Assembly: GCA_028717645.1 (NCBI GenBank)
Contig: JAQUNK010000004.1
Span: forward strand, 16,349 to 80,348
Direction: 5' to 3'
Length of the DNA stretch: 64,000 nucleotides
Source of the DNA: Candidatus Omnitrophota bacterium
Lineage (GTDB): Bacteria > Omnitrophota > Gorgyraeia > Gygaellales > JAMWDD01
The notes under the pieces: generated by a model
What the model saw: the letters and a program-made list of their open reading frames with translations, nothing else
What the model was told of the DNA's origin: nothing
The model's database searches: none
Shown: piece after piece, positions 19,991 through 45,142 of the stretch
How positions within the stretch are numbered: the first letter of the stretch is position 1
Layout of the letters: each line of letters opens with the position of its first letter
Position numbers and translations under genes: made by a program

Positions 19991-19993
19991 AAA

Positions 19994-22211: not shown

Positions 22212-22222
22212 ATTACCCTCTC

Positions 22223-27430: not shown

Positions 27431-27439
27431 GCTCCCATC

Positions 27440-27568: not shown

Positions 27569-27569
27569 T

Positions 27570-28259: not shown

Positions 28260-29001
28260 AAATGATCCCTCCCGCGATACAAAAAGTCGATAATGTGATT
28301 ATTTCCGTCAATTCAATTGTTGCCCCCAGGGTATCTCCGGTCATCCCGCCGATCTTCCTACTGAAAAATTTAGCGCTTAAATAAGTAAAACCGCCGACCA
28401 CTAACAACGCGATTGTGCCGGTCAGCCATCCGAGTACTAAGGCAAAGATAACGGCCGATGCTGAAGCGATAAGAAAAGTCTTCAAGGTCATTCCCTGAAT
28501 AAAAACCTTGGCCTTGCCTTCCTGGCGGGCATAAGGAAAAAAAGACATTGCCCCGACCGCCGACCAGCGGCTTAAAACGCACATCAATATCAGGGCAGCC
28601 GCTTTATCCTGCGGCCGTAGGGAAAAAATAAGCCCTACCTTTAAGAGTAGCGCGCAAACCACGCTGGCAACGCCCAGCGCGCCGCTATGCGGATCGCGCA
28701 TGATCGCCAGGAATTTTTCCTTATCTTTGCCGCTGGAGATCGCGTCGAAGGTATCCGAGAGTCCGTCTAAATGCATACCGCCGGTAATCAATACCAAGGC
28801 CACGACCAAAACTATTGCCGCAGTAAGTTCATAGAAATTCAGGGCGTACAATACCCTGCTTAACCCGAAAAGTATCAGGCCGATAAACAGCCCCACCGCC
28901 GGGAACCAGGCCGGGGCTTGCGCAAACTTACGCTCATCCATATTTTTAATACGCAGGGGGATAACGGTCAAAAACTGCAATGCTGAAAGAAGGCTTGTCA
29001 T
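28252..29001 (-). CDS. cobS: Adenosylcobinamide-GDP ribazoletransferase (cobalamin synthase)
   Basis: 249 aa, polytopic, starting MTSLLSALQFLTVIPL, with the CobS signature. Confidence 0.85.
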   Translation of the reverse strand: MTSLLSALQFLTVIPLRIKNMDERKFAQAPAWFPAVGLFIGLILFGLSRVLYALNFYELTAAIVLVVALVLITGGMHLDGLSDTFDAISSGKDKEKFLAIMRDPHSGALGVASVVCALLLKVGLIFSLRPQDKAAALILMCVLSRWSAVGAMSFFPYARQEGKAKVFIQGMTLKTFLIASASAVIFALVLGWLTGTIALLVVGGFTYLSAKFFSRKIGGMTGDTLGATIELTEIITLSTFCIAGGIIYG

Positions 29002-30056
29002 TTTTTCTTCTCCGATACTTTTGCGCTCTCGAACGTGGCCATCTGGGTAAGAATTTTTATTGCCGCGTCCGCCAAAGACATGGCTAAAGCGCCACCCGTT
29101 CCTTCGCCGAGCCGCAAGTCCAGGTCAAGCAGCGGCCTAAGGCCGATATGTTCTAAAATATATTTGTGCCCACCCTCTGCTGACTGGTGGGCAGCGATGA
29201 GATATTTTTTTACCCGCGGTTCGATCTGATAAGCAATAAGCGCTGCGGCACCCGAAATAAAACCGTCGATGACCACCGGGACCTTTTGGGCGGCTGCGGC
29301 AAGGATTATTCCCGCCAGGCCCGCGATCTCAAAACCGCCGACCTTGGATAAAACATCTATTGCATCTTTGGGGTCAGGCTTGTTTACGGCTAGCGACCTT
29401 TTGATCACCTCAATTTTATTTTTTAATCCTTTGTCATCGAGGCCGGCGCCGCGGCCGGTGATCTCTTCTACCGGCTTCCTGGTAAAGGCTGCGGTTATGG
29501 CGCTGGCGGAGCTCGTATTACCTATGCCCATCTCGCCGGTACCGATGATATCCAGCCCGCGCTGGAATTCATCTTCAAAAATCTCAAAGCCGACGACGAT
29601 CGCCCTGATGGCCTCATCCCGGGTCATTGCCGGGCCCTTGGCCATATTTTTCGTTCCGTAAGCGATTTTTTTAATCACTAGGCGGGGATCAGGCCCGAGG
29701 TCTACGGCCACACCCATATCCACTACGACTACTCTCGCCCCGCAGTGCCTGGCCAGGACATTGATCCCTGCACCGCCCTTAAGGAAATTATCGACCATCT
29801 GGCCGGTCACATCCTTAGGATAAGCGCTGACCCCCTCGTCGGTCACTCCATGGTCAGCGGCCAGGGTAAAGATCACTTTATGCTCCAGGCTAGGGTTGCT
29901 TTTCGCAGTGATCCCACAGACCTGCTTTGCCAGTTCCTCTAACCTGCCCAGGCTCCCCAGGGGCTTGGTCAAGCTATCCAGTTTTTTTTGCGCCTCTTCC
30001 ATCGCCCGCGCATCCAGATCAGTGATCTGGGCGGTTATTTTTTTTATTCTTTCCAT
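28998..30056 (-). CDS. cobT: Nicotinate-nucleotide–dimethylbenzimidazole phosphoribosyltransferase
   Basis: 352 aa with …KPLGSLGRLEELA… and …GIGNTSSASA…. Confidence 0.85.
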   Translation of the reverse strand: MERIKKITAQITDLDARAMEEAQKKLDSLTKPLGSLGRLEELAKQVCGITAKSNPSLEHKVIFTLAADHGVTDEGVSAYPKDVTGQMVDNFLKGGAGINVLARHCGARVVVVDMGVAVDLGPDPRLVIKKIAYGTKNMAKGPAMTRDEAIRAIVVGFEIFEDEFQRGLDIIGTGEMGIGNTSSASAITAAFTRKPVEEITGRGAGLDDKGLKNKIEVIKRSLAVNKPDPKDAIDVLSKVGGFEIAGLAGIILAAAAQKVPVVIDGFISGAAALIAYQIEPRVKKYLIAAHQSAEGGHKYILEHIGLRPLLDLDLRLGEGTGGALAMSLADAAIKILTQMATFESAKVSEKKK

Positions 30057-30063
30057 ACGACCC

Positions 30064-30579
30064 TCATTTTACTTTTACCGGTATTCCGGAAACAGTAAAA
30101 AATACCTCGTCAGCTTCCCGGGCCGCCAATTGATTGACTCGGCCGGCGACATCGCGGAATTTCCTGCCCAATTCATGCACCGGCACCAGGCCCAGGCCCA
30201 CTTCATTCGAAACAAGGATTGAGCGTATTTTCATTTTTTCTAACTGCGCCAGCATCTTAAGCGCTTCGCGCATAATTTTTTCTTCTTTGTTCTTTGTAAG
30301 TAAAAGATTGGAGACCCAGAGGGTAAGGCAATCGATGATCACACAATCAAAATCATTACCGATATTTTCCAGCGCAGGAATAATGTCCTCATCTCTTTCA
30401 AAAGTCACCCAATGCGGCGGCCGCAAGACCCGGTGTTTCTTTATCCGCTGGCGCATTTCTTTATCCAGGGCTTGAGCAGTAGCGATAAAGGCTACCCGCT
30501 TATATTTTTTTGCCAAGCCAAGCGCGTAAGTGCTCTTTCCGCTGCGTGCCCCGCCCAAAACTAAAGTGATCTTTCCCAT
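30064..30579 (-). CDS. cobU: Adenosylcobinamide kinase / adenosylcobinamide-phosphate guanylyltransferase
   Basis: 171 aa starting with a LVLGGARSGKS P-loop. Confidence 0.85.
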   Translation of the reverse strand: MGKITLVLGGARSGKSTYALGLAKKYKRVAFIATAQALDKEMRQRIKKHRVLRPPHWVTFERDEDIIPALENIGNDFDCVIIDCLTLWVSNLLLTKNKEEKIMREALKMLAQLEKMKIRSILVSNEVGLGLVPVHELGRKFRDVAGRVNQLAAREADEVFFTVSGIPVKVK

Positions 30580-30583
30580 AATT

Positions 30584-31210
30584 TTAGCCCAAATGCGCGA
30601 TATCGTTAAATTTCATAATGCGCGGTTTTCTGTTTTTGTATTTTACTACCGTAACACTGGTTGCCCCGGGCACATAACGCCAAAAATCTTTTGATCTATA
30701 AATACCGCCCACGAAAACGCCGATCACTCCGCCATGGCAGACCACGGCAACGGTTTTATCCGGGTTAGCGCGGGCAATTTTGGCAAATGAAACATAGATC
30801 CTTTTTTTAAAATCGGCCATCTTTTCGGCGCGGGGAATATGGTGCTGGTAAGGGTCGCTGAGCCATTTTTTATAGACCGGGCCGTATTTTTTCATGATCT
30901 CTGTGTGCCTCAGTCCCTCGAACACGCCAAAATTGATTTCCCGTAAGCCTTTGACCTTTGCGATCCTTACCCTGCCAAAAATGATCCGGCAGGTTTCTAG
31001 CGCACGTTTTCTGTCGCTGGAATAGATACGGTCGAAACAAACATCCTTAAGTTTACGGTGCAGCTTAACTGCCTGGGCCCTACCTTCACTGCTTAAAGGC
31101 ACGTCTTTACAGCCGCAATAGCGCCGCGCCTTGTTCCAATTAGTAATTCCGTGACGGATCAATATCAGTTCAGTGGCCATTGTTTTCCCTTCCCGGGACC
31201 AGGAGCACAT
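30584..31210 (-). CDS. cobC: Alpha-ribazole phosphatase (histidine phosphatase family)
   Basis: LILIRHG catalytic motif. The true start is probably the internal MATEL… codon. Confidence 0.7.
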   Translation of the reverse strand: MCSWSREGKTMATELILIRHGITNWNKARRYCGCKDVPLSSEGRAQAVKLHRKLKDVCFDRIYSSDRKRALETCRIIFGRVRIAKVKGLREINFGVFEGLRHTEIMKKYGPVYKKWLSDPYQHHIPRAEKMADFKKRIYVSFAKIARANPDKTVAVVCHGGVIGVFVGGIYRSKDFWRYVPGATSVTVVKYKNRKPRIMKFNDIAHLG

Positions 31211-31970
31211 TCGGCCCGTGCGTCACAGGATTTTCGTTCACTAAAACGATAGTTTTATAAACTGCTTCGATATTCTGGTAAGTCAAGACCTCTGCCGCAC
31301 TGCCTTCTTTAAAGATGCTGCCTCTATCCATAAGGGCAATGCGGTTAGAATAATTAGCCGCCAGGTTTAAGTCATGCAGGATCATGGCAATGGTCACTTG
31401 GTTATCACGGTTCAGTTTTTTTAAGAGGTCCAATATCTGTATCTGGTGGCCGATATCCAGATGCGCAGTCGGCTCATCGAGCAGGAGAAGTTCGGGCTCC
31501 TGCGCCAGGGCGCGGGCAATGATCACTCTCTGGCGCTCGCCGGCGCTCAGTTCATCGACCAGTTTATCCTTCAGGCTAAGGGTATCGGTAAGGGAAAGCG
31601 ACCGCTCGGCGATCTCGATATCCCTTTTGGTCTCGAATTGTAATCTTTTTAAATGCGGGATCCTGCCCATAGTTACGATCTCCATTACCGTAAAAGAAAA
31701 ATTGGTCGAGATGTCCTGAGAGACGAAGGCGACCCTGCGGCAAAATTCTTTCAGGGGCATATGAAAAATATCACTGCCCTTAAAATAGATCTTTCCTGAG
31801 CGGGGAGAAAGTACGCGCGTAGCGAACCTCAGGAGCGTCGTCTTACCTGAACCGTTGGGGCCGATGATCCCCATAAAATCACCCTGGTTAATTTCCAGAG
31901 ACACCCCTTTGAGTACATCTTCTTTATAATAACCGCCGCTTAAATTATCTATCCTTAACATTGGGTTCAT
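31170..31970 (-). CDS. btuD: ABC transporter ATP-binding protein, BtuD/FecE family
   Basis: Walker A GPNGSGKTTLL, LSGGERQR signature and Walker B LLLDEP. Confidence 0.8.
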   Translation of the reverse strand: MNPMLRIDNLSGGYYKEDVLKGVSLEINQGDFMGIIGPNGSGKTTLLRFATRVLSPRSGKIYFKGSDIFHMPLKEFCRRVAFVSQDISTNFSFTVMEIVTMGRIPHLKRLQFETKRDIEIAERSLSLTDTLSLKDKLVDELSAGERQRVIIARALAQEPELLLLDEPTAHLDIGHQIQILDLLKKLNRDNQVTIAMILHDLNLAANYSNRIALMDRGSIFKEGSAAEVLTYQNIEAVYKTIVLVNENPVTHGPNVLLVPGRENNGH

Positions 31971-32929
31971 CGGAGCCTCATTCCCCTTTTTAAAAGCAGG
32001 ATAAACACCGGAGCGCCGATTATCGCCGTGATCACTCCGATGGGAATTTCTAAAGGCGCAAAAAGTGTGCGCGCCAAAAGGTCAGAACCGATCATAAAAA
32101 TAGAAGCCGCCAGGCAACTAATGGGAATAAGCACTTTATGGTTCGGGCCCACTATCAACCTGATCATATGCGGCACGATCAACCCGACGAACCCGATTAT
32201 CCCGCAGATACAGATCAGGCTGGCGGTGATCAACGCCGTAATGAGGATCAAAATTTTCTTGATGCCCTGCGTATCGATGCCCAAATGCATTGCTTCTTCT
32301 TCTCCCAGGCTTATCGCGTTCAAATCCTGGGCAAAGAGATAAATCGCAGCTATCCCCAGGACGACCGGAAAAGCTACCGCTAAAACCAATTTATAATCGT
32401 AGACCTGAAAACTTCCCCACAGCCACCAGGTCATTTCGTGTATGGCGCGGTTGCCGGAAATAGAGATCAAAAATACTATCAGGGAAGAAAAGGCCACTGA
32501 GATTATCACACCGGAGAGGATCAATGATTTATCCGAAATGCGGTTTTCTTCGCGGGCCAGGGCGTAAACCAGGACAATGCTCGCCACCGCTCCCAGGAAC
32601 GCAGCCAGAGGCATATAATTTATGGATACCCCCAGGACCAGGGCGATTATTGCTGCCAGGCCCGCGCCGCTGGAGGTCCCCAATAAATATGGCTCAGCCA
32701 AAGGATTCCTTAGGATCGCCTGCAGGGTGATCCCTGAAACAGCCAGGCCGCTTCCTGCGAGGATCGCCGTAATTATCCTTAAAATACGCATGTTCAGGAT
32801 GACGCGGTTATCTTTTAACAAAAGGCTTTGAAGAGGAATGTTCACCGCGCCCTTGATCAGGGCCAATACTACGACCAGGCAAAGGAGCAGGAATAATACC
32901 ACTAATCTTTTCTTTAAATGCGCGAACAT
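31967..32929 (-). CDS. btuC: ABC permease, BtuC/FecCD family
   Basis: 320 aa with about 9 TM helices, in the FecCD-family arrangement. Confidence 0.8.
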   Translation of the reverse strand: MFAHLKKRLVVLFLLLCLVVVLALIKGAVNIPLQSLLLKDNRVILNMRILRIITAILAGSGLAVSGITLQAILRNPLAEPYLLGTSSGAGLAAIIALVLGVSINYMPLAAFLGAVASIVLVYALAREENRISDKSLILSGVIISVAFSSLIVFLISISGNRAIHEMTWWLWGSFQVYDYKLVLAVAFPVVLGIAAIYLFAQDLNAISLGEEEAMHLGIDTQGIKKILILITALITASLICICGIIGFVGLIVPHMIRLIVGPNHKVLIPISCLAASIFMIGSDLLARTLFAPLEIPIGVITAIIGAPVFILLLKRGMRLR

Positions 32930-32930
32930 T

Positions 32931-33803
32931 TTAAGGATATAACCTCTGATAAAGTTCTTTCAGGCCCTCGGTCGTCCTCGGCCCGGGCCTGAGCAGCATA
33001 TTCGGGTCGATATCATTGAATATGCGTTTATTCTTCACCGCGTCGATATTGCCCCAGCCGAACCTGGACGCAACCAATCTTAAGGGCAGCTCCTGGGCCA
33101 TATAAGCCATAATGATACAGCCGGGATTAAGGCTCACTACTTTTTCCGCACTGAAATTACTATAGGGCCGCCTGACCTCGTGAGCGATATTGACTCCGCC
33201 GGCCAAGGTGATCAATTCATCGATGAACGAACCCTTCCCCGCGGTCATCAGCGGCTCGTGCCAGATCTCGATAAACACCCTTACCTTTTTTCCATCCGGT
33301 ATGGCCCGGACCTTAGAACTTACCGCATCCATATCTGCCTGCATCTTCTTTAATAATTGTGCAGCCTCATTATTCTTATGGGTGATCTTTCCTATCTCAC
33401 TTATCGTCTCGAATAATTCTTTGATGTTCGTGGGGTCGGATACATAGACATTGAACCCCAGCCGTTTCAATTGATTCACTGCCGGCTCCTGTTCCAGGCC
33501 GGTACAAAAAATAAAATCAGGCCGCAAGGAAACGATCTTCTCGATATTCGGCCGGCTGAAATCCCCTATTTTCTCTTTAAGTTTTGCCTGGGCCGGATAA
33601 TCGCAAAAAGAACTTACCGCGATTATTTCTTTATCCAGGCCGAGAGCAAATAAGATTTCCGTGGTCGAAGGCGCCAGGGAAATATAGCGCGGCGTAGCTG
33701 ACCCGGAGCCAGGGCCGGCAGCCCCACAGATCATCAGAACAATCAAACCAATAACCGAGTATATTTTTTTCATCCCAATAAAAAATCCCGAACGCCGCAC
33801 CAT
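32931..33803 (-). CDS. btuF: Periplasmic cobalamin/iron-siderophore binding protein (BtuF-like)
   Basis: Signal peptide, then a class III substrate-binding-protein fold. It is the first gene after the second riboswitch. Confidence 0.7.
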   Translation of the reverse strand: MVRRSGFFIGMKKIYSVIGLIVLMICGAAGPGSGSATPRYISLAPSTTEILFALGLDKEIIAVSSFCDYPAQAKLKEKIGDFSRPNIEKIVSLRPDFIFCTGLEQEPAVNQLKRLGFNVYVSDPTNIKELFETISEIGKITHKNNEAAQLLKKMQADMDAVSSKVRAIPDGKKVRVFIEIWHEPLMTAGKGSFIDELITLAGGVNIAHEVRRPYSNFSAEKVVSLNPGCIIMAYMAQELPLRLVASRFGWGNIDAVKNKRIFNDIDPNMLLRPGPRTTEGLKELYQRLYP

Positions 33804-33807
33804 TTTT

Positions 33808-34055
33808 AGTGCCGACTTCGGGATTATACCCTGTTTTAATTCATCCCTTGGCTTTGTCCGCGAACCAAGTCTTATCCGGACTTTCTATATAGGCAGGTCT
33901 TCTGACTTCCCCGCCCCTTCAGCTACCTTCCCATCCTTAAAACAATTCGGACAGTGGTATTTTTCGCTGAAAGAGTCCCCTTTCTACAATAGAAAGGGCG
34001 GGGTTACAGCGGCGGGACCGTTGCCGTTTTTACGGCATTCCCTTTTAACCTACAT
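33808..34055 (-). promoter_or_regulatory. Cobalamin riboswitch plus terminator-type expression platform upstream of btuF
   Basis: The minus strand reads …AAAAGGGAATGCCGTAAAAACGGCAACGGTCCCGCCGCTGTAACC… and …AATACCACTGTCC (B12-box core). This is followed by the hairpin AATCCCGAAG…CTTCGGGATT plus a U-run immediately 5' of the btuF start. Confidence 0.6.
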
Positions 34056-34103
34056 AGAACGATTGATTTCTTTTTATTATAAATCAGGCTGCCTAAAAGT
34101 CAA

Positions 34104-34649
34104 TCAATATTCAATGGCTTTTCGCGCGCAGTTGCCTTGATCAAAATGATGTTTTATTTTTTTTATTTCACTGACCAGGTCGGCATGGCGCATGAGATTA
34201 CGGGATGCGCCCCGGCCGGTAAATACGATATTTAAACTACGGGGCTTGTCTTTAAGCAGAGAGATTATCTCTTTTTCCCGCAAGAGCCCGTCGCGTAGCG
34301 CGATATTTATTTCATCTACTATCAACATGTCGAATTTACGCTTAAAGGCACTGCGGATGTACTTCAGGGCATCAAGGCACGCGAGCCTGGCCTCTTTTTT
34401 ATCCACGCCGCGGCAGAAACGCGGGTGATGCGTCGCGCAGTGGATCACCCGGATACCTATCTTCTTCAATATCCTATCTTCACCGCTGGGGAATACTTCC
34501 GGGTCCTTAAAAAAATGTATCAGGCATACCTTAAAACCATTGCCCGCGGCGCGTACTGCCTGGCCGACCGCCTGGGTAGTTTTACCTTTGCCTTCGCCGG
34601 TATAGATCTGGACCAGGCCCCTTAGATGCACTTTACACTTACGTTGCAT
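34104..34649 (-). CDS. cobO: Cob(I)yrinic acid a,c-diamide adenosyltransferase (CobA/CobO/BtuR family)
   Basis: GLVQIYTGEGKGKTTQAVG P-loop, characteristic of the family. 181 aa. Confidence 0.8.
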   Translation of the reverse strand: MQRKCKVHLRGLVQIYTGEGKGKTTQAVGQAVRAAGNGFKVCLIHFFKDPEVFPSGEDRILKKIGIRVIHCATHHPRFCRGVDKKEARLACLDALKYIRSAFKRKFDMLIVDEINIALRDGLLREKEIISLLKDKPRSLNIVFTGRGASRNLMRHADLVSEIKKIKHHFDQGNCARKAIEY

Positions 34650-36000: not shown

Positions 36001-37491
36001 TCAGAATTTTAAAGCAAGGTTCGCGGCATCCATCCCGGAAATAAAACAGCCGTGGACCCCATGGCCCGGCCGCGTCCAGGCTCCGGCTAAAAATAATCCT
36101 TTTATCGCCGTCTTCTGGCCCAGCCGGTTGATGCTCGATTGGGCAACAGTCTGCGCAAAACCATAGATCGCGCCTTCCGGAGACCCGGTAAAAGCCTGCA
36201 TGGTCCGGGGCGTAGCCGTTTCCCTTACCTCGATATGCTTCGTCAACCCGGGCAGGTATTTTTGCGCGCGTAGGATCAATTTATCCGCCATCTCCTGTTT
36301 TTTCTTCTGGTATTCTTCTTCACTTAAACCCTGCCAGTTTGTATAACTGTCTAAGGACATGATAACCAGGCCCCCTTTTCCCGGCGGGACAAGCCCAGGA
36401 TCAAGCTGGCTGTGGTCAACGATCTCGATCGAACACCTCTCGTAATCTCCGGCGAGAGAAAAACGCATGGATTCATCGTGTTCATATGTAGTATTGATGG
36501 AAAACATGTACTCGTTCATTCCCAGGCTCCTGGCCGGCACATCCAGGCCCAGGTATACCTGAACCGCGGAAATGGATTTCTCCAGGCCCAACAATTTTTT
36601 CCGGTATATTTCTTTTAAGGCCTCATCATCTATCAGGCTGGTGAACGTATCTATGGCATTGGCATTGGAAATTATTGCCCTGGCTTTAAATTCCTCGCCT
36701 TTCTCAGTAACCACTGATTTTATTGAGCCGCGATCGGTTACGATTTTTTTAACAGTAGTATTAAACCTTACTTCTGAGCCGGAATTTTTTATTTCCTCAA
36801 CCATTGCCTCAAACAACCGGATAAAACCACCCCTGATATAAGCGGTCGGGTTGTAATAATATCCCCTAAAAATAAGCAGAAAATAGAATGCGCCGAGGTC
36901 CTCTGGCGGCAGGCCGGCAAAACGCCAGATATCGGTGATCAGCGCCTGAAGCCGATCGCCGGTAATGAATCGAGCAATAAATTGCTTTGTAGTAAGCCTC
37001 GATGCCATGATGATAGCCGGATAAAGAAAAGGAACCAGCACAAGCTTAAGCCAGAGGGGAAATTTTACATTACAGAATTTATCGAACTGGGCGTAGAATT
37101 TGTCTATATCTAAAAATAATTTTTTGATATTTCCGGCTTCCTCAGGGAAGCTTTGGCTAAGGTATGCGATAAAATCTTCATGGCGGGGCGTAACCAAGAA
37201 ATTATGCCCGGGATAGATCACGCGCGCAAAATTTTTTAAGGGAATAAAATCTAATTTTTTATCGAGGCCTGCTTCTTCCAGGAATTTCCTGATCTCGCCA
37301 CCCTCCCCCAGCGCGTCCACGCAGTGTATGGCGGATTCAAAGGTAAAACCTTTCCTTTTAAAAACAGTGGCGTAGCCTCCGGGCAGAGGCTGCTTTTCCA
37401 GAAGAAGTACCCTCCTTCCGGCATGTGATAATTTTAGCGCAGAAGTCAATCCAGCGACGCCTGCGCCAATGATAATTACATCATATTCCAT
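36001..37491 (-). CDS. FAD-dependent oxidoreductase, phytoene-desaturase (CrtI)/amine-oxidase family
   Basis: YDVIIIGAGVAGLTSA dinucleotide-binding motif and a C-terminal …GLFLAGAWTRPGHGVHG…. 496 aa. Confidence 0.7.
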   Translation of the reverse strand: MEYDVIIIGAGVAGLTSALKLSHAGRRVLLLEKQPLPGGYATVFKRKGFTFESAIHCVDALGEGGEIRKFLEEAGLDKKLDFIPLKNFARVIYPGHNFLVTPRHEDFIAYLSQSFPEEAGNIKKLFLDIDKFYAQFDKFCNVKFPLWLKLVLVPFLYPAIIMASRLTTKQFIARFITGDRLQALITDIWRFAGLPPEDLGAFYFLLIFRGYYYNPTAYIRGGFIRLFEAMVEEIKNSGSEVRFNTTVKKIVTDRGSIKSVVTEKGEEFKARAIISNANAIDTFTSLIDDEALKEIYRKKLLGLEKSISAVQVYLGLDVPARSLGMNEYMFSINTTYEHDESMRFSLAGDYERCSIEIVDHSQLDPGLVPPGKGGLVIMSLDSYTNWQGLSEEEYQKKKQEMADKLILRAQKYLPGLTKHIEVRETATPRTMQAFTGSPEGAIYGFAQTVAQSSINRLGQKTAIKGLFLAGAWTRPGHGVHGCFISGMDAANLALKF

Positions 37492-37498
37492 CTTAAAG

Positions 37499-38332
37499 TT
37501 AGAATTTATTGATGAATCTTATTGCCTCTTGGGCAACCCTGTCTTTTTCTTTATCGATGGTGATCATATGGTAGCTATCCTCTAAAACTACCAGCGATTT
37601 ATCTTTCGAGCCGATATTTTTGAATACGTATTGGGCGTTCTTCAGGCTCGTCATATCATCCTCTTTGGCATGCAGGATAATGGCAGGAGTTTTGACTCCG
37701 GGCAATTCTCGCCTGACCACTCCAGTAAGGAGGTGGTGCTGATAAAGGCAGGCCAACGGAAAAAACGGGCTGCCGAAAAGGAGCACCTTATTATCGAACG
37801 CGCGCGCATCGGCATTCTTGTAAAACCGCTGGATATTCTCCCTTAATCCTTCATCTTTCAAGCCATAAGGCCAGCCTTCCCGGATATTTATCCTGTTCCT
37901 GAAAAATGGCGCGTGCCAAGCCAGGTTCATGAATATCTTTCCTTTATGCAATGCCCAGCCGTCATAAAATAGGGTTGGCGCCAGGGCGATGATGCCGGTT
38001 ATATCCGAGGGGAATTCGTAAGCCAGGTGCATAGCCATGAGTGCCCCCATGGAAAGGCCGCCGATAAAAACCTGCGTACATTCTTTTTGCAGGCGCCTCA
38101 AAGATCTAATACAACTCTCTGCGATCTCTTTCCAGGTAACTTTTTTTAATTCTCCCAGGGTATCGCAATGGCGCGGCAGGGTATTGCATAAAACAGTATT
38201 GCCTGCTTTCTGCAGCTGCTTACCGAAATAATGCATCTCTGAAGGCGTGCCGGTTATCCCGTGGATAAGCAGTACGCCTTTATTGCCGCCTTTTAAGAAA
38301 AAATTGAATTTTTGGGGGTTGTGTTTCTCCAT
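37499..38332 (-). CDS. Alpha/beta-hydrolase (esterase/thioesterase-like)
   Basis: GLSMGALMA nucleophile elbow (GxSxG). 277 aa. Confidence 0.65.
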   Translation of the reverse strand: MEKHNPQKFNFFLKGGNKGVLLIHGITGTPSEMHYFGKQLQKAGNTVLCNTLPRHCDTLGELKKVTWKEIAESCIRSLRRLQKECTQVFIGGLSMGALMAMHLAYEFPSDITGIIALAPTLFYDGWALHKGKIFMNLAWHAPFFRNRINIREGWPYGLKDEGLRENIQRFYKNADARAFDNKVLLFGSPFFPLACLYQHHLLTGVVRRELPGVKTPAIILHAKEDDMTSLKNAQYVFKNIGSKDKSLVVLEDSYHMITIDKEKDRVAQEAIRFINKF

Positions 38333-38357
38333 AATGCAGATTATTATAACATAAAAA

Positions 38358-39566
38358 TTAAAGCGGGGGAAATTTCCTTAATACCAGGCAGGCATTATTT
38401 CCGCCAAAGGCCGAGGCGCTGTTCAAGGCAATGTTGACTTTTTGCTTACGCGTTACGTTGGGTACGCAATCAATATCACATTCAGGGTCCGGGGTCTCGT
38501 AGTTGATCGTGGGTGGCAGGATGTCGTTTTTTATGGCGAGGCAACAGGCCACCGCCTCAATGGCCGAGGCCGCACCCATGGTGTGGCCGAGCATTGACTT
38601 GATGGAACTCACCGCCAGCCTGCGTCCTTTAAAAACCTGGTTAATCGCCGCACACTCTTCTTTATCATTGGCCGGCGTGCCGGTCCCGTGGGCGTTAAAA
38701 TAATCTACGTCCTCGGGCCGCAGGCTGCTTGCTGCCAGTGATTTTTCTATCGCCTGTTTTATCCCCTCAGAAAAGGGAGCGGTCATATGATGTGCGTCGC
38801 AACTTAAACCATAACCCAGGACTTCCGCATAAATATCGCTTTTTCTTTTTAAAGCACTTTCCAGCGATTCCAGGACCACTATACCCGCGCCTTCGCCCAC
38901 GAGCATTCCTTTTCTGTTTTTATCAAAAGGCTGGCATTTTTCAGGCGCTACGGCGAACATACGATTAAAACCGATAAAGGCGATCTTGGAAAAGGCATCC
39001 GCGCCTCCGGCAAGCATCATGTCGGCTTCGCCCATCCTGATCAGATCATAGGCATAACCAATAGCATAGTTTCCCGCGGCACAGGCGGTAGGGATCACAT
39101 AGTTCGGCCCTTTCAATCCAAATTCTATGGCCACGTTCGTAGAAAGTACGTTCGAGGGATACCTTGGAATCAGCGCCGGCTCCAAGGCCTCTGGCCCGTT
39201 CTTCACCCAGGCTAGATTCAATTGTTCCAGTATCTGCGATTCGCCCATGGTCGTACCCATGCAGACACCGGCCCTTTCTTTGTCAGGAATGGTTTTTAAT
39301 TTTGCGCTCTCCAGCGCCAGGTGCGCCACGCTCACCGCAAAACACGATGCACGGCCCAATTGATCGATCTTTTCCGAGCTGATAAATTGTTGAGGTTGGA
39401 AGCCTTTGACTTCGCCGCCGTTATGGGTGGGAAAATCTGCAGTATCTATGGAAGAGATCTTTGAGATGCCGCTTTTTCCGGCAATAAGGGATTTCCAGAA
39501 TGCGTCCTGGCCAATGCCCACTGAAGAAATGACGCCCAGGCCAGTGATCACTACCCGCTTATCCAT
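38358..39566 (-). CDS. Beta-ketoacyl-ACP synthase (KS, FabF-like, catalytically complete)
   Basis: Active-site Cys in PTACAAG, and His residues in AHHMTAP and NAHGTGTPAND. Confidence 0.8.
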   Translation of the reverse strand: MDKRVVITGLGVISSVGIGQDAFWKSLIAGKSGISKISSIDTADFPTHNGGEVKGFQPQQFISSEKIDQLGRASCFAVSVAHLALESAKLKTIPDKERAGVCMGTTMGESQILEQLNLAWVKNGPEALEPALIPRYPSNVLSTNVAIEFGLKGPNYVIPTACAAGNYAIGYAYDLIRMGEADMMLAGGADAFSKIAFIGFNRMFAVAPEKCQPFDKNRKGMLVGEGAGIVVLESLESALKRKSDIYAEVLGYGLSCDAHHMTAPFSEGIKQAIEKSLAASSLRPEDVDYFNAHGTGTPANDKEECAAINQVFKGRRLAVSSIKSMLGHTMGAASAIEAVACCLAIKNDILPPTINYETPDPECDIDCVPNVTRKQKVNIALNSASAFGGNNACLVLRKFPPL

Positions 39567-39571
39567 GCCGT

Positions 39572-40015
39572 TTACGTGCTTTCTTTTGCCATGAAGCTGA
39601 TCTCGCCGCCGGCGACTTTTTGCCCTTTAACGCGCGCCTCGGCATTCACTATGGCTGCCTGGGTAATGACCTTGACCGGTTCGATAACTATTTCTATCTG
39701 ATCTCCGGGTAAAACCGGATGCAGGAACCTTACCTTTACGCTGCTCAGGTAATAAGTGGGTTTCTTGGCAGAGCTCGGCTCATCAGGAGAATGAAAAAGA
39801 ATGATTGCTGCCTGCGCCATGGCCTCGATGATAAGCGCGCCCGGCATAATGGGGTTGCCCGGAAAATGCCCCTTTATAAAATCATCGTTTGCGCTTACGT
39901 TCTTCAGCGCCACGATCTTTTTCCCTGGTTCTAATTCCGTGACGCGATCGATCATCAGGAAGGGAAAACGCTGGGGCAATATCTTAAAAATTTCTTCTAT
40001 ATTAAGTATGGGCAT
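39572..40015 (-). CDS. Hotdog-fold 3-hydroxyacyl-ACP dehydratase (FabZ/FabA-like)
   Basis: 147 aa with HFPGNPIMPGALIIEAMAQ, the FabZ catalytic His region. Confidence 0.75.
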   Translation of the reverse strand: MPILNIEEIFKILPQRFPFLMIDRVTELEPGKKIVALKNVSANDDFIKGHFPGNPIMPGALIIEAMAQAAIILFHSPDEPSSAKKPTYYLSSVKVRFLHPVLPGDQIEIVIEPVKVITQAAIVNAEARVKGQKVAGGEISFMAKEST

Positions 40016-40259
40016 TCTGCTTTTTGGCTAAGCACTCTCTGGCGATGGCGAGTGTCGCGTTTAAATTGGTCAACGCCGCCAGCTTCTCTTCGGGAATGGC
40101 GATCTTATATTTCTTTTCCATTGCCGCTAATATTTCCAGGGCCATCATTGAATCCATGCCTAAATCCTCGATGAACCTCGATTCCGGCTTGATCTCTTCA
40201 GGGTCCTTTTCCAGTATCTCAGCAATGATATTCTTGATCTCGCTTTCCAATTCTTGCAT
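40002..40259 (-). CDS. Acyl carrier protein (dedicated)
   Basis: 85 aa with DLGMDSMMALE, the phosphopantetheine-attachment Ser. Confidence 0.8.
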   Translation of the reverse strand: MQELESEIKNIIAEILEKDPEEIKPESRFIEDLGMDSMMALEILAAMEKKYKIAIPEEKLAALTNLNATLAIARECLAKKQNAHT

Positions 40260-40280
40260 CCATTCCTCCTCTATCTGGTA

Positions 40281-41522
40281 CTAAGCGTTGTATTTCGAAA
40301 TTACCAGGCTCGCGTTACAGCCGCTAGGGCCAAAGGTATTGATCAAAGCATGCCTTACCTTTGCAGCCCGCGCCTGATTTGCCGTATAATTTAGATCGCA
40401 GGCCGGATCCTTTACTTCATAATTTATGGTCGGCGGTATCTTCTGCTTCTCTAACGCGCAAACTCCCGCGGCGAGCCCAAAAGCGCCACCGGCACTGAAG
40501 CATTCTCCGATCATAGACTTAATAGCACTAATATACAATTTTTCTTTGTATTTTGCAAATACATCTTTTATGGCGCAGGTTTCCAGGACATCCGCGTTTA
40601 CGCCTGAATTTGCGCCGGCAGAAAGGTAATCTATATCTGCGGGCGAAAGAGCAGACTTATCCAATGCCTGACGTAGCGACCGACTCATGCCTTGCGCCTC
40701 GGAAGGGTATTTATCCACCCGGTAAGGCTCAAAGGCCGTGCCAAAGCCGCTGACTAAAGCGTAAATATTTGCCTGGCGCCGGAGGGCAGAATCCAGGTCT
40801 TCCAGGATAAACACCACTGAACCCTCTCCGAGAACTACGCCGTTCCTCCTCTTATCAAAAGGACAGGATAATTCTATCCCTGCGTCTTTCGAACCTGCCA
40901 AAGAATGCGTCCTGTAAAAACCTAAAAAGGTCTGCTCACAAAGTTCTTCTACGCCGCCGGCTAAAACCGTTTTGGCGCGGCCCATTCTGATGAAATTCGC
41001 GGCATAACCAACGGCTTCCAGGCTCGAGGTAAAACCCGTAGAGATAGTAGTATTAAAACCTTTAATGCCGAACCTGATGGAGATCTGGCTGGCCGGAGAA
41101 TTAATCACCGTGTTCGGGAAAAGCGCCGGGTTGACAAAGCGCGGCCCTTCTTTGATCGCCTCCTTGTCGAATTCACTCATACTCCTGACGCTGGCCAAAG
41201 TAGAGCCGATGGCCACCCCTGTATCCAGGGTGTTGCCTTCGTTGATCTCTAAATGCGCGTCTTCTAAGGCGAGTTTAGCCGCGCAGTTGACCAGCTTGGT
41301 GCTGCGATCTAAAACACGCAGCCCTTTTTCACCGAGGATAGCCTGCGGCTGAAAATCCTTTACCTCACCGGCGGTCTTGACTTTATATGCAGACGTATCA
41401 AACAAAGAGATCGGCTTTATGCCGGAAAGGCCCTGAAAAATAGCCTCGCTAAAGGCCGATTTTCCGATAGCATTAGGGCCGATCACGCCAACGCCGGTAA
41501 TGACTACTTTTTTTTCGTTCAT
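40281..41522 (-). CDS. KS-like protein lacking catalytic Cys/His (chain-length-factor-like partner)
   Basis: Thiolase/KS fold (VVITGVGVIGP…). The nucleophile position reads ISTGFTSS (no Cys) and the His motifs are replaced (GFGTAFEPYRV, ANSGVNAD). Confidence 0.7.
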   Translation of the reverse strand: MNEKKVVITGVGVIGPNAIGKSAFSEAIFQGLSGIKPISLFDTSAYKVKTAGEVKDFQPQAILGEKGLRVLDRSTKLVNCAAKLALEDAHLEINEGNTLDTGVAIGSTLASVRSMSEFDKEAIKEGPRFVNPALFPNTVINSPASQISIRFGIKGFNTTISTGFTSSLEAVGYAANFIRMGRAKTVLAGGVEELCEQTFLGFYRTHSLAGSKDAGIELSCPFDKRRNGVVLGEGSVVFILEDLDSALRRQANIYALVSGFGTAFEPYRVDKYPSEAQGMSRSLRQALDKSALSPADIDYLSAGANSGVNADVLETCAIKDVFAKYKEKLYISAIKSMIGECFSAGGAFGLAAGVCALEKQKIPPTINYEVKDPACDLNYTANQARAAKVRHALINTFGPSGCNASLVISKYNA

Positions 41523-41555
41523 TCTTACGATAAAGGAAAGTTTTAAAAAATGCGG

Positions 41556-42974
41556 CTACTTGGTAAGGGCGATACCTTTACGCAGGGCCTCTTCAAAAAG
41601 ATCCACCGCAAGGTCTATCTCTTTTTCTTTGATATAGAGCGACGGGGCAAGGGTAAACACGTTTTTATAATAACCGCCCACATCGAGTATCAGGCCCCTC
41701 TTTTTCCCGCCGGACTTGAGGTTCCCGCTTAAACCTATATTGGTAATGGCATCGGTAAGCGCGCGATTAGGCGTATATCCGTCTTTCTCGCAGATCTCAA
41801 CCCTCAGGGCCAGGCCCATGCCGTCAACATCGCCTATCTCGGGATATTTTTTCTGTAATTCTCTAAGGCGGGCGATAAAATAACGCCCCTTCTTCGGTAC
41901 CTGCTCGGCGAAGTCCGATTCCTCGATAAGTTTGAGCGTCTCCAGCCCTACGGCTGTGCCCAGGGGGTTGGAAGAGAATGTCGAGTGTGTCGAGCCCGGA
42001 GGAAAAACTTCAGGGGAGATCAATTCCTCTTTTGCCCATATCCCGGAAATGGGATTAAGGCCGTTGGTCAGCGCCTTACCGAAAACAATGATATCCGGAA
42101 TGACTCCGAAATGTTCTATCGCCCAGAACTTTCCAGTGCGGTAAAAACCCATCTGGATCTCATCATCTACCAGAAGTATTTTATATCGATCCAATAATTC
42201 CTTGAGCCTTGAAAAATATTCTAGCGGCGGGATGACGTAGCCGCCTGTACCCTGCAGTGCCTCGATATAAAATGCGCTGAACTCGCAGCGGTTGGTCTTT
42301 TTATTGATCAGAGAATAATATTCCGTTTCAAATAATCTCTCGAACTGCCTCAGGCAATATAAGTCGCAGTAATCCCTTCTTTTATCATAAGGGCACCTGA
42401 AACAATAAGGATAGGGTATAAAACAAGCGCGGTCGGAGAAATGCCCGAATTTTTCGCGGTAGCGAAAACTGGAAGTGATCGCCGAAGCACCCAAGGTCCT
42501 ACCGTGATAGCCGCCCATAAAGGCAAAGACCAGGTTTCTTCCGGTATGATTACGCACGACCTTTAAAGAATCTTCTACTGCCGAGGCACCCCCCACATTA
42601 AAATGCACGCGGCCCTTGGTTTCAAAGGTAACCTCTATTTTTTGTGCCAGGCGGGCAGCCAGGCGGATCTTTTCCTCATGCAGGTATTGGCAAGCCAACT
42701 GCGGCAGGGTATCGATCTGTTTTTTTAACGCGCGGTTCAAGCGGGGATTTTTATAGCCAAAATTAACCGCAGAATACCACATCTGCAGGTCCACGAATTC
42801 CGTCCCCTGCTTATCGTAGAGATACATCCCTTCTGCGCGGTTAAAAATATTCAGTTTTTCGGCATAATGCACCGTATCGCCCCAGGAACAATATTTTTTC
42901 TCCAGTTGCAGGAGTTCATCTTCCTGTTTCTCTGGCTTTACGGCCCTAGCCCTTGCCTTTTCCTTCTGTTTCAT
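41556..42974 (-). CDS. Class-III (PLP-dependent) aminotransferase
   Basis: DDEIQMGFYRTG and IVFGKAL (Schiff-base Lys). 472 aa with several extra Cys residues. Confidence 0.75.
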   Translation of the reverse strand: MKQKEKARARAVKPEKQEDELLQLEKKYCSWGDTVHYAEKLNIFNRAEGMYLYDKQGTEFVDLQMWYSAVNFGYKNPRLNRALKKQIDTLPQLACQYLHEEKIRLAARLAQKIEVTFETKGRVHFNVGGASAVEDSLKVVRNHTGRNLVFAFMGGYHGRTLGASAITSSFRYREKFGHFSDRACFIPYPYCFRCPYDKRRDYCDLYCLRQFERLFETEYYSLINKKTNRCEFSAFYIEALQGTGGYVIPPLEYFSRLKELLDRYKILLVDDEIQMGFYRTGKFWAIEHFGVIPDIIVFGKALTNGLNPISGIWAKEELISPEVFPPGSTHSTFSSNPLGTAVGLETLKLIEESDFAEQVPKKGRYFIARLRELQKKYPEIGDVDGMGLALRVEICEKDGYTPNRALTDAITNIGLSGNLKSGGKKRGLILDVGGYYKNVFTLAPSLYIKEKEIDLAVDLFEEALRKGIALTK

Positions 42975-43645
42975 CGTTCCAGACTCCTTAACGAATCGTA
43001 GATATCCCTAAAATCTTTAAACGCGGCGCACAATAACTTCTTTCTTCTGAAATGTTCCAATAATTTTCCCTTGGCAAAAACGATATCCGCCTCTTCGGCC
43101 GGGCAGATATCCGAAGCGCCATCGCCAATATAGATAATAATTTTATCCCGCAAATTATGCTTTAGCAAGTTTTTCCTTTTGCAGTGGGCACAGTGGGCGC
43201 AACGTTTATAGGTATGCGGAAATGAGGGGGTCAGCCTATCTTTGGCAAATTTTAACCTGTTGGCATATATTTTTATACCGCTGATCCTGTTTTTACGTAG
43301 GACACTGTTGATAACGAACGAAAAATCATCGCTTAAGATGGCTGTTTTTATCCCTTCCCTTTTAAGCAAAGATATGAGCCTGGGGAAACCCGGCGTAAGC
43401 GTAACTTTGGAAAGATAGCGCGCCAACGCAGGCTTAGTGATCCTTATTCCTTTTAACTGGCCGCTAAGGCATTCCAAAGAACCGATCTTACCCTGTTTCC
43501 AGCGCTCTTCCAGCTTCACCCAGTCTTTATTTATGGAAAATTTCTCGATCAGATCGTCCAGCACATCAAAAGAAGTAATAGTGTTGTCAAAATCGAAGAA
43601 TACCGCGCAATCCGATAACTTATGTAATCTGATATGGTTATGCAT
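42971..43645 (-). CDS. HAD-superfamily phosphatase (subfamily IB/MtnX-like)
   Basis: FFDFDNTIT motif I and YIGDGASD motif IV. Confidence 0.65.
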   Translation of the reverse strand: MHNHIRLHKLSDCAVFFDFDNTITSFDVLDDLIEKFSINKDWVKLEERWKQGKIGSLECLSGQLKGIRITKPALARYLSKVTLTPGFPRLISLLKREGIKTAILSDDFSFVINSVLRKNRISGIKIYANRLKFAKDRLTPSFPHTYKRCAHCAHCKRKNLLKHNLRDKIIIYIGDGASDICPAEEADIVFAKGKLLEHFRRKKLLCAAFKDFRDIYDSLRSLER

Positions 43646-43680: not shown

Positions 43681-44343
43681 TCAGTTTTTGCGTTTTATAT
43701 TCTCAGCGATCAGCCGGGAAAACCTGCCCCCAGTAAACGCGTCTATACTGGCGGTAAGCTCCTGAATACGCAATTCCTTGTCTGTGCGTTTTTTCCCTTC
43801 CGGCACACCGGCCAACAGTTCTATCTGCAGCCGGCGGCGCTCAAAATAATCGCGCGTAACCTCATACAATATATCATTCCTTAATTGCGTGGTCAGGCGC
43901 GAGCGCGTGTCTATGGAAGTCTGGTCAGTGGACCAGATAAGATCGCTCAATTCCCAGCTCACCGTAACATCCCAGCCCGAACTGATATCCTGGGGCCCGT
44001 TCACACAATAATTATTGGTCGAGCTGGTATATATTTCATAAGTATTGCCCGTGGACTTGTCCCAGCCGACGCTTAATTTCGGCAGTAGCGCCTTTATCCG
44101 CGCCTGCTTTTGCCAGCGGGAGATCTTTTCCGGCTCTACATCGGCATACTCTATAGCCAAGCCCTGCACCTTGGCTATAGATGGTTCATAAGAAAAATAA
44201 TTTTCGTATTCTTCCACGCTGATGTAATTAAATTCCCCTGCATTTGATCCCTGAGACGGCCCTTGCCGTTTTTCCTGCGCCGGCTCAACACCAGTGGCCA
44301 CCAATAAAACCAAAACTACCGTAAAAAATGCTTTTTTCTGCAC
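43681..44343 (-). CDS. Secreted hypothetical protein
   Basis: Signal peptide MQKKAFFTVVLVLLVATGVEP. No recognisable domain. Confidence 0.45.
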   Translation of the reverse strand: MQKKAFFTVVLVLLVATGVEPAQEKRQGPSQGSNAGEFNYISVEEYENYFSYEPSIAKVQGLAIEYADVEPEKISRWQKQARIKALLPKLSVGWDKSTGNTYEIYTSSTNNYCVNGPQDISSGWDVTVSWELSDLIWSTDQTSIDTRSRLTTQLRNDILYEVTRDYFERRRLQIELLAGVPEGKKRTDKELRIQELTASIDAFTGGRFSRLIAENIKRKN

Positions 44344-44443: not shown

Positions 44444-45142
44444 TTAAAAATCGAAGTTAAGTGAAGCTGCGGCTTGAGCGCCGTCTAAGAAGTCGAACTC
44501 GGTATTCAGCCGGACATTTTTCGTGAGGTTAAAGTCCAGGCCCGCGACTAAGCCGAAATTGTCTTCTGCCTTATATCTTTTGCGGTTAGCATCGTCTATC
44601 CAGCGGATCAGATCATAAGTACCGTATTTGAAACCGAAATAAGGAGTGAATTTTTTCCAGGAGACCGAGCCGAGCACCGAACCCTGCCATTCATCGGCTA
44701 TTGCTTTATATTTACCCGCCGCAGTATCTACGGTCTTCGGATGCACGCTGATATGCTGGAATCCGCCGACCAAGCGGATCTTTTTACTTTTATTTTCGTA
44801 GAACCTTAACCTGAAACCATATGCCCCGGAAAAACCGGTAGAGAATTTCAGGTCCCCGTAAGGGCTGTCTTTCCAGTCAATTTTTCCTGCGCCGCCTTTT
44901 AAGTCAATGCTCAACCAGTCAAATACGCCATAAGATAGCGCGAGGAACTCATCGGGGTTCTTTATTTTTCCGTTCTCATGCTGCAGAGAACGCTTGACCA
45001 CAAAATTATATTCCACACCCAGGGTGATCCTGTTCCTCGCAGGCATATGCGTGCCGTAGCAAGGCGCGGCATGAACTTGGGTCGAAAAAATAAAAACAGC
45101 ACCCAGCGTGATAAAAAATATATTCTGTAACTTCATAAGCAT
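44444..45142 (-). CDS. Outer-membrane beta-barrel protein (small porin/MipA-OmpV-like)
   Basis: Signal peptide, alternating amphipathic strands, C-terminal …SLNFDF ending in Phe. Confidence 0.55.
   Translation of the reverse strand: MLMKLQNIFFITLGAVFIFSTQVHAAPCYGTHMPARNRITLGVEYNFVVKRSLQHENGKIKNPDEFLALSYGVFDWLSIDLKGGAGKIDWKDSPYGDLKFSTGFSGAYGFRLRFYENKSKKIRLVGGFQHISVHPKTVDTAAGKYKAIADEWQGSVLGSVSWKKFTPYFGFKYGTYDLIRWIDDANRKRYKAEDNFGLVAGLDFNLTKNVRLNTEFDFLDGAQAAASLNFDF

Follow-up and report, generated by a model that had tools for sequence, protein, structure and literature searches.

Which product does a bacterium of the candidate phylum Omnitrophota make with a compact operon that encodes an active ketosynthase, a second ketosynthase devoid of its nucleophile, and six further proteins? 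The operon lies on the minus strand at positions 36001-43645 of a 64-kb stretch of Candidatus Omnitrophota DNA (hereafter the window), and the original prediction had read it as an orphan type II polyketide synthase (PKS) or aryl-polyene-like lipid operon that matched no described pathway. Our comparisons indicate instead that its core is a close relative of Cluster I, the genes believed to initiate the synthesis of ladderane lipids in anammox bacteria (KustE3603-3608: amxACP, amxFabZ, amxFabF2, amxFabFmut, PDH and a B12 radical S-adenosylmethionine (radical-SAM) protein). Judged by homology, five of these six gene families are represented, so that the core is related to, but not identical with, a full Cluster I. 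We put at about 55% the probability that the block is the Omnitrophota version of the fatty acid synthase (FAS)-like module of Cluster I and makes a specialised, non-ladderane acyl chain.

Gene content of the operon

The eight genes are, in the order of transcription:

42971-43645, minus strand: HAD-IB phosphatase (HAD), phosphoserine-phosphatase/MtnX/PHOSPHO1-like, first gene of the block (Pfam Put_Phosphatase/HAD, NCBIfam TIGR01489)
41556-42974, minus strand: pyridoxal phosphate (PLP) enzyme of the class-III fold (AT), a transaminase, possibly a racemase or lyase (Pfam Aminotran_3, 8.8e-82)
40281-41522, minus strand: dead ketosynthase paralogue, chain-length-factor-like (CLF), of the amxFabFmut type (triad loss, PDB, tree)
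40002-40259, minus strand: dedicated acyl carrier protein (ACP), amxACP-like (Pfam PP-binding, PDB)
39572-40015, minus strand: FabZ-type 3-hydroxyacyl-ACP dehydratase (DH) of the amxFabZ kind, with narrowed tunnel (PDB, signature residues)
38358-39566, minus strand: active ketosynthase (KS) of the amxFabF2 type (intact triad, PDB, tree)
37499-38332, minus strand: alpha/beta-fold serine hydrolase (ABH), LipS/monoacylglycerol-lipase-like (Pfam Hydrolase_4)
36001-37491, minus strand: flavin adenine dinucleotide protein of the CrtI/amine-oxidase family, homologue of the anammox Cluster I PDH (Pfam Amino_oxidase, NCBIfam crtI_fam)

The open reading frames (ORFs) bear out the predicted order of eight minus-strand genes, and their Pfam and NCBIfam families agree with those originally named. 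Pfam E-values of the eight proteins range from 1e-16 to 1e-82, and they are therefore not chance ORFs. The motifs of the phosphatase (DFDNT), the PLP lysine (FGKAL), the ACP serine (GMDSM), the hydrolase elbow (GLSMG) and the flavoprotein (GxGxxG) are all intact. Overlapping stops and starts, proposed for the block as a whole, occur at two junctions (HAD/AT, 4 bp; ACP/DH, 14 bp), while the remaining five are gaps of 5-33 bp. The GC content of the cluster is uniform and the same as that of its flanks. A promoter and terminator scan of 34.5-46.5 kb gave counts close to shuffled expectation, so that operon boundaries could not be set from it.

The ketosynthase pair

Alignment of the CLF with B. 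subtilis FabF (MAFFT) upheld the predicted loss of catalytic residues: the protein reads ISTGFTSS at the nucleophile site, with Phe in place of Cys, Arg in place of His298, Gly in place of His333 and Pro in place of the gate Phe, and keeps the Lys. In the same type of alignment the KS retains the complete Cys-His-Lys-His set and the gate Phe. The nearest relatives of both proteins in a PDB sequence search were the two subunits of the amxFabF2/amxFabFmut crystal structures, which represent a KS/chain-length-factor-like heterodimer (PDB 9s5h/9s5i, 2026 preprint). The KS scored 533 bits to amxFabF2 (9s5h_B; 58.8% identity), 363 bits to its second-best match, the ishigamide KS Iga11 (6kxd_A), and 328 bits to B. 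subtilis FabF. The CLF scored 409 bits to 9s5h_C, to which it aligns gap-free across 409 residues, 257 bits to B. subtilis FabF and 142 bits to the act CLF.

For comparison, related loci (numbered with the prefix L) were retrieved by a pattern-based search that returned 23 genome and 27 metagenome loci; many of these are canonical FabF loci of other phyla, and co-occurrence frequencies are rough. In neighbour-joining (NJ) trees, the CLF-like proteins and amxFabFmut form one clade (100/100 bootstraps) and the cluster KSs and amxFabF2 another (82/100), both to the exclusion of canonical FabF. A first NJ tree placed amxFabF2 inside the Omnitrophota KS clade. Nesting of anammox proteins within the Omnitrophota clade received bootstraps of 11-40%, with 11% for amxFabF2, and we therefore claim no direction of transfer. 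Among the 120 CLF homologues listed, identity to the window protein is 56-70%, and each one with a source name derives from an Omnitrophota metagenome-assembled genome (MAG).

Cys and both His are lost in all 24 Omnitrophota CLFs examined and in one CLF from Uhrbacteria. In amxFabFmut the tunnel is lined by Phe135, Thr138 and Val139, and mutating Phe135 or Val139 tunes chain-length preference (2026 preprint). The window CLF keeps all three residues, as do 23 of 24 CLFs, whereas B. subtilis FabF has V/M/I. Together these data support, at the level of sequence, the original proposal that the window KS and CLF are a KS/chain-length-factor-type pair and not housekeeping FabF or FabB. By analogy with the anammox proteins, which decarboxylate malonyl-ACP only together (2026 preprint), the two window proteins would form a heterodimer. 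Net-charge counts over KS/CLF interface segments did not reproduce the reported asymmetry, not even for the anammox proteins, and are an uninformative measure.

Carrier protein, dehydratase, flavoprotein and hydrolase

The proteins that accompany the pair point in the same direction. The best PDB matches of the ACP are the anammox amxACP entries 7auf, 7qv0_D and 9s5i_E (60-67 bits; canonical ACPs at most 46), and those of the DH are amxFabZ 7qv0_A and 8ayb (124 bits; canonical 108). AmxFabZ is defined by an Ile at the tunnel Gly together with a hydrophobic residue at the ACP-binding Arg/Lys, and prefers chains of C8 or shorter (JBC 2023, PMC10139942). The window DH carries Ile (AQAAIILF) at the position of the canonical FabZ tunnel Gly69 and Val/Ile (KVIT) at the Arg/Lys115 position, where E. 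coli FabZ reads EKTRR; its catalytic His and Glu are present. The tunnel Gly is replaced by Ile, Met or Cys in all Omnitrophota DHs from these clusters.

The flavoprotein scored 192 bits against crtI_fam, below the cut-off of 238. In phmmer comparisons it reached 207 bits to a Brocadiaceae PDH, as against 94 to CrtI (PDB 4dgk) and 140-150 to other cluster-linked PDH types of Omnitrophota, although identity to the anammox PDH is only 29% (207-222 bits). The PDB matches of the hydrolase are LipS (101 bits) and thermostable monoacylglycerol lipases (about 90 bits), which makes it a candidate off-loading or acyl-transfer enzyme.

Comparison with anammox Cluster I

Six features tie the window to Cluster I: an intact-triad KS with an adjacent dead paralogue, the placement of both in the anammox clades, the CLF tunnel residues, the amxFabZ signatures (Ile in the tunnel, hydrophobic residue in the ACP patch), a dedicated amxACP-like ACP, and a PDH-like, CrtI-related flavoprotein encoded downstream. 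The order ACP-DH-KS is common to both. Relative to a Brocadiaceae locus with the order ACP-FabZ-KS-CLF-PDH-B12 radical-SAM, the window proteins are 55.5% (KS), 46% (CLF), 47% (ACP) and 29% (PDH) identical; the DH is 47% identical to amxFabZ, compared with 27% to a second, non-cluster FabZ-like gene of the same locus. The claim that the arrangement was not a described pathway therefore did not stand: the core has the known Cluster I layout, and metagenome surveys had earlier recorded antiSMASH 'ladderane' clusters of unassigned function in Omnitrophota as well as in other phyla.

The window also differs from Cluster I. The window CLF is encoded upstream of the ACP and has Phe at the Cys position, whereas the anammox CLF follows the KS and has Val or Thr. 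The window adds the lipase-like hydrolase and the HAD/PLP-enzyme pair, most Omnitrophota loci add a ketoreductase (KR) that the window has lost, and the host belongs to a phylum not known to make ladderanes. The window also has no B12 radical-SAM gene, which speaks against the idea that a bacterium outside the anammox group has a true ladderane pathway. In favour of this idea, the window holds five of the six Cluster I gene families together with signature residues, and antiSMASH labels such clusters 'ladderane'; we nevertheless regard the idea as close to untenable. No homologue of the B12-binding radical-SAM protein was found in the window (tblastn) or in any fetched Omnitrophota locus. The only radical-SAM gene of the window is 30 kb from the cluster and has a Radical_SAM match without a B12-binding domain. 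Moreover, ladderanes have been found only in anammox bacteria.

One anammox locus deserves a separate remark. In the complete genome of Brocadiaceae B188 (CP064969.1; L059:8724-9949), amxFabF2 is called as two ORFs of 340 and 61 amino acids in a frameshift-like arrangement, which may reflect a sequencing error or a real disruption.

Recurrence and variation in Omnitrophota

The core is widespread in Omnitrophota. The fetched clusters share the arrangement CLF-KR-(ACP)-(DH)-KS, often with a CrtI-like flavoprotein or a Rossmann protein of about 360 amino acids. A fuller operon, HAD-AT-CLF-KR-ACP-DH-KS-ABH-PDH, is found in two loci (L060, L061) of a subclade that includes the window, and a third (L062; CLF 66% identical) has the CLF-to-PDH block without the HAD-AT pair. 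The ABH gene immediately precedes the flavoprotein gene, downstream of the KS, in these three loci and in L006. Two loci (L006, L031) add arginase-like and FemAB-like genes to the operon; in both, the FemAB-like gene is on the minus strand between KS and ABH, and L031 ends ahead of any flavoprotein gene.

The window operon equals that of L060 and L061 minus the KR, an absence on which the original prediction did not remark. The gap between CLF and ACP is 21 bp and thus leaves no room for a KR remnant, and the whole 64-kb window contains no KR, nor, outside the cluster, any other fab gene or a phosphopantetheinyl transferase. The closest relative (L032; CLF 70% identical) goes further and has AT-CLF-ACP-KS, without KR and DH. 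The missing activities could come from elsewhere in the genome. In L062 a canonical plsX-fabH-fabD-fabG set starts 1.6 kb downstream of the cluster; the subclade therefore has canonical type II FAS genes besides the cluster, which would be a source for the missing KR, the malonyl transferase and possibly the enoyl reductase. Since an intact DH needs a 3-hydroxyacyl substrate, its presence argues that a KR acts in trans and that the pathway is not non-reducing.

The same relative bears on whether the operon could be the housekeeping type II FAS, that is, the only fabF/fabZ/acpP set of the organism, which was the circumstance under which the original prediction would have failed. Automated naming does yield FabF and FabZ, because the KS exceeds the NCBIfam NF005589 threshold of 387 with 422 bits and the DH the NF000582 threshold of 113 with 149 bits, and there is no second fab set in the window. 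As far as L062 shows, the cluster is nonetheless an additional set, lying beside plsX-fabH-fabD-fabG. It lacks FabD, FabH and FabI, in the window also FabG; its KR and DH content differs between genomes; and with 441.5 bits the KS stays short of the 493.75 required by the fabF equivalog. Anammox bacteria, too, hold both Cluster I and a canonical FabF. A housekeeping role is therefore hardly credible.

In relatives, genes for PagL (a lipid A deacylase), DegT, FemAB-like and EamA proteins flank the operon, which suggests an envelope lipid as the destination of the chain.

Accessory genes vary widely across this cluster family. Five loci (L002, L011, L013, L036, L037; approximately 10001-12500) have CLF-KR-DH alone, and neither an ACP nor an active KS is encoded within 10 kb, so the dead subunit is sometimes encoded away from its presumed partner KS. 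Two others (L003:8770-13956, L005:8521-13666) have CLF-KR-(ACP)-DH-KS right after genes for lipoate-ligase-like, lipoyl-carrier domain and dihydrolipoamide-dehydrogenase-like proteins, a layout suggestive of a connection of a short-chain synthase with lipoylation. L007:10818-13599 and L012:12797-15723 carry either one more KS, which is highly divergent and has Cys-Lys-Lys-His, or a tandem pair of CrtI-like flavoproteins. Outside the phylum, a locus of Candidatus Uhrbacteria, a member of the candidate phyla radiation (CPR), encodes KS-CLF-ACP-DH-KS-KS (L017:4645-14551), with a Phe-type CLF that is 43% identical and a fusion of polyketide-cyclase/SRPBCC and Rossmann domains about 2.5 kb upstream; the cluster is unexpectedly elaborate for a CPR bacterium.

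The phosphatase and PLP-enzyme pair

Do the first two genes belong to the same pathway? The HAD protein exceeds the cut-off of TIGR01489 (101.7 bits), and its best PDB relatives are human and archaeal phosphoserine phosphatases and MtnX. The AT reached no NCBIfam equivalog cut-off. In the PDB it comes closest to Ala/Ser and broad-specificity racemases of archaea and to GABA-AT-like enzymes. It resembles amino-acid racemases of this fold roughly as closely as transaminases and may belong to the former; comparison with NCBIfam and the PDB did not tell transaminase, phospho-lyase and racemase apart. No gene of the operon is better conserved than the AT (81% identity vs 53-73% for the others, with 57-71% for these in L060 and L061), and among its 120 best listed homologues nearly all are 76-88% identical, with one Omnitrophota MAG protein (P0131) at 100%.

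The HAD gene is directly upstream of the AT, overlapping it or within about 90 bp, in five fetched loci (L029, L030, L031, L060, L061). In two of these the pair occurs without KS/CLF: in L029 beside arginase-like, hydrolase, DegT, FemAB-like and EamA genes, and in L030 beside two D-Ala-D-Ala-ligase-like ATP-grasp genes and a lysine-aminomutase-like radical-SAM gene. As L062 conversely has the CLF-to-PDH block without the pair, we treat HAD-AT as a separate module, which this subclade probably transcribes together with the lipid genes.

In the model that follows from the original prediction, all eight genes serve a single pathway: the class-III transaminase would act on a keto or aldehyde group of the KS/CLF product, and an amino-functionalised polyene, an alkylamine or a beta-amino acid would result, with the flavoprotein as amine oxidase or desaturase and the hydrolase releasing the product. 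Several observations speak for this. The order HAD-AT-CLF, with an AT-CLF gap of at most 90 bp, recurs in the window and in L032, L060 and L061, while an arginase-like gene is inserted between AT and CLF in L031. Eleven CLF and AT matches have longest contigs of equal length, which is a proxy only for location on one contig. L032 has the minimal set AT-CLF-ACP-KS, and as neither it nor the window has a KR, a beta-keto intermediate could be available; class-III transaminase domains are known to aminate beta-ketoacyl thioesters in mycosubtilin-type synthetases. The flavoprotein also belongs to the amine-oxidase Pfam family.

Even so, we consider amination of the chain unlikely. Besides the occurrence of the pair without KS/CLF nearby, the CLF-to-PDH block does without the pair not only in L062 but in most Omnitrophota loci and in anammox bacteria. 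Conservation of the AT far above that of the lipid genes fits a primary-metabolic enzyme, and its best structural relatives include racemases. The intact DH requires a reduced 3-hydroxy substrate, which is unfit for a non-reducing route, and no reductase that could form an aldehyde is present. While the role of HAD and AT in the lipid pathway is uncertain, aminating the acyl chain is a less likely task for them than making or processing an amine or amino acid that is small and polar, of the serine or ethanolamine type.

Other known systems

Three further systems resemble the window in part. Like the highly reducing type II PKS of the ishigamide type (Iga10-13, Iga16; 6kxd), it has a KS/CLF pair and its own ACP and lacks an enoyl reductase; in such a PKS, KS/CLF, ACP, KR and DH would yield polyene chains when no enoyl reductase takes part. 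In structure, too, the homologue nearest to amxFabF2 is Iga11. Unlike in the ishigamide system, the window CLF has no Iga12 match at E<=1e-20 and looks FabF-derived, the KR is missing (it is present in L060-L062), and the setting is a lipid pathway of a streamlined bacterium instead of an actinomycete secondary-metabolite cluster. The rhizobial cluster acpXL-fabZXL-fabF2XL-fabF1XL-adhA2XL-lpxXL, which supplies a fatty acid of very long chain (C26-C30) to lipid A, likewise combines a dedicated ACP and FabZ with two adjacent FabF paralogues, and its order ACP-FabZ-FabF-FabF is that of anammox Cluster I. The resemblance described here is one of layout, and the rhizobial genes include those for an alcohol dehydrogenase and the LpxXL acyltransferase but none for a CrtI-like flavoprotein. 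Both the highly reducing type II PKS and the acpXL cluster are functional analogues of the window cluster.

Aryl polyene clusters, with which the operon had originally been compared, also have a KS/CLF-type pair, ACP, KR, FabZ-like DHs and no enoyl reductase, and in precomputed Pfam annotations the DH is ApeI-like and relatives show ApeP-like matches. This part of the original interpretation has to be abandoned, while the KS/CLF pair at its centre remains. KS and CLF group with the amxFabF proteins, only one ACP and one DH of the expected set are encoded, and a Pfam search of all ORFs at 27.5-52.7 kb found no aryl-acid (starter) ligase, second ACP, thioesterase, methyltransferase, LolA/MMPL export genes, or glycosyl- or acyltransferases.

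Other candidates were rejected. An aromatic type II PKS is contradicted by Phe, not Gln, at the Cys position of the CLF, and no cyclase was found by Pfam among the same ORFs. The cispentacin Amc system failed on NCBIfam scores (AmcF against KS/CLF, 228.5 vs a cut-off of 325; AmcE against DH, 91.2 vs 140; AmcB against ACP, 28.7 vs 80), which are also below the FabF/FabZ scores, and no adenylating enzyme is present. A prodigiosin-type reading was dropped on NCBIfam scores as well. For a biotin route with BioA/BioH-like enzymes, BioF, BioD and BioB are missing and scores are far below cut-offs; a BioY-family (biotin transporter) gene about 8 kb upstream of the HAD-AT pair in L029 was also counted against it.

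Genomic surroundings

The flanks of the cluster are unrelated to lipid synthesis. Two genes directly upstream are uncertain members of the operon, and neither adjoins the cluster in relatives:

43681-44343, minus strand: hypothetical protein of 220 amino acids, 35 bp upstream of the HAD gene, without Pfam match
44444-45142, minus strand: beta-barrel outer-membrane protein of 232 amino acids, after a 100-bp gap, with a sub-threshold OMP_b-brl match

Beyond this hypothetical protein and small beta-barrel protein, the upstream side encodes a SurA-like chaperone, a ferritin and pyruvate:ferredoxin oxidoreductase, and the downstream side a nuclease, a peptide deformylase and a cobalamin-salvage and transport operon. 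The latter (25586-34649) comprises a TonB-dependent receptor, a cobalamin lower-ligand/salvage operon (CobT, CobU, CobS, CobC-like, BtuR) and an importer of the BtuF/FecCD/ABC type, which suggests scavenging and remodelling of corrinoids by the organism. Elsewhere, the window encodes acetate kinase/PTA, branched-chain amino-acid enzymes and, at 13525-25488, an H+-translocating pyrophosphatase followed by a membrane-bound [NiFe] hydrogenase/Mrp-antiporter-type complex with a HycI maturation protease. At 5447-8746, a radical-SAM protein of 380 amino acids, unrelated to the B12 radical-SAM protein of anammox Cluster I, adjoins a spermidine-synthase-domain protein of 717 amino acids. An AbiU2-type HEPN protein of the abortive-infection family (8821-9498) is encoded where the window has its one stretch of low GC content (0.41, 8001-10000).

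A proposed pathway

How might the enzymes work together? The comparisons establish homology, the state of the active sites, signature residues, gene order and recurrence; heterodimer formation, chain length, product and the parts played by flavoprotein, hydrolase and PLP enzyme are deduced from them. KS (38358-39566) and CLF (40281-41522) would form a heterodimer that acts on the dedicated ACP (40002-40259). By analogy with the anammox pair, the heterodimer would prime itself by decarboxylation of malonyl-ACP and then extend the chain, and the CLF tunnel residues together with the Ile-narrowed DH may bias synthesis to short or medium chains of roughly C6-C10. The cluster encodes no enoyl reductase and no malonyl transferase, and in the window no KR. 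These steps would have to be supplied by the housekeeping FAS; alternatively, enoyl reduction might be skipped, leaving the chain unsaturated. The CrtI-like flavoprotein could then alter the chain by desaturation, isomerisation or saturation, and the lipase-like hydrolase could release or transfer it. The outcome would be an acyl chain of a specialised, non-ladderane type, which probably becomes part of a lipid of the cell envelope.

On chain length, this proposal leans on the anammox proteins. Their heterodimer crosslinks faster and more completely with C8 (less reproducibly C6) than with C16 probes (2026 preprint). A preference for C6-C8 would also suit a dedicated short-chain synthase that, like mitochondrial FAS, supplies octanoyl-ACP or a similar chain for a cofactor such as lipoate, and in three loci (L003, L004, L005) the cluster directly follows lipoate-ligase-like, lipoyl-carrier and dihydrolipoamide-dehydrogenase-like genes. 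Such adjacency is absent from the window and from most loci, and the cluster has no gene for an enoyl reductase. A CrtI-like flavoprotein and a lipase-like hydrolase, which consistently accompany the cluster, would have no role in lipoate supply, and the high reported expression of the anammox cluster is unsuited to synthesis of a trace cofactor. We consider this explanation very improbable and retain the specialised, non-ladderane chain as the preferred reading.

Several points weigh against that reading. No product is known for any member of the family, the anammox one included. Anammox assays gave no elongation past acetoacetyl-ACP, and the chain-length data are a crosslinking proxy (2026 preprint); in modelling, C12-C16 chains could fit the anammox tunnel, and a short chain is therefore not secure. 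KR and DH are irregularly present, from AT-CLF-ACP-KS in L032 to CLF-KR-DH in L002, L011 and L013. The supply of housekeeping FabG, FabI and FabD is deduced from the relative L062, the source genome being seen as a 64-kb window, and the envelope as destination is likewise suggested by neighbour genes in other genomes, not in the window.

Implications for Cluster I and for Omnitrophota

Two recent structural papers described Cluster I as exclusive to ladderane producers and used this as an argument for its role. The window and about 30 related loci contradict this exclusivity. As the core occurs in Omnitrophota without the radical-SAM gene, machinery supposed to be restricted to anammox bacteria probably also serves some other lipid, and the shared 'precursor' module thereby becomes separable from the candidate ladderane-specific step, the radical-SAM protein. 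For genome mining, it follows that antiSMASH 'ladderane' calls in Omnitrophota identify true relatives of the core genes, yet do not indicate ladderanes. The loss of KR in the window, and of KR and DH in L032, amounts to a natural experiment on the steps that the housekeeping FAS is able to lend.

It is tempting to go further and propose, tentatively, that KS/CLF-ACP-FabZ-PDH is an older, more widely distributed route to a short, unsaturated acyl chain of an unusual kind, a route common to Omnitrophota, at least one CPR bacterium and anammox bacteria. In this scenario, which we hold to be possible but doubtful, anammox bacteria would have added only the B12 radical-SAM protein (with other genes) to arrive at ladderanes, while Omnitrophota would build the precursor, with the hydrolase and perhaps the HAD/PLP-enzyme pair, into envelope lipids or aminolipids of a new class. 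If this is true, the Omnitrophota operons would offer a ladderane-free system in which to learn what the shared enzymes make. The operons indicate an uncharacterised lipid in a widespread uncultured phylum.

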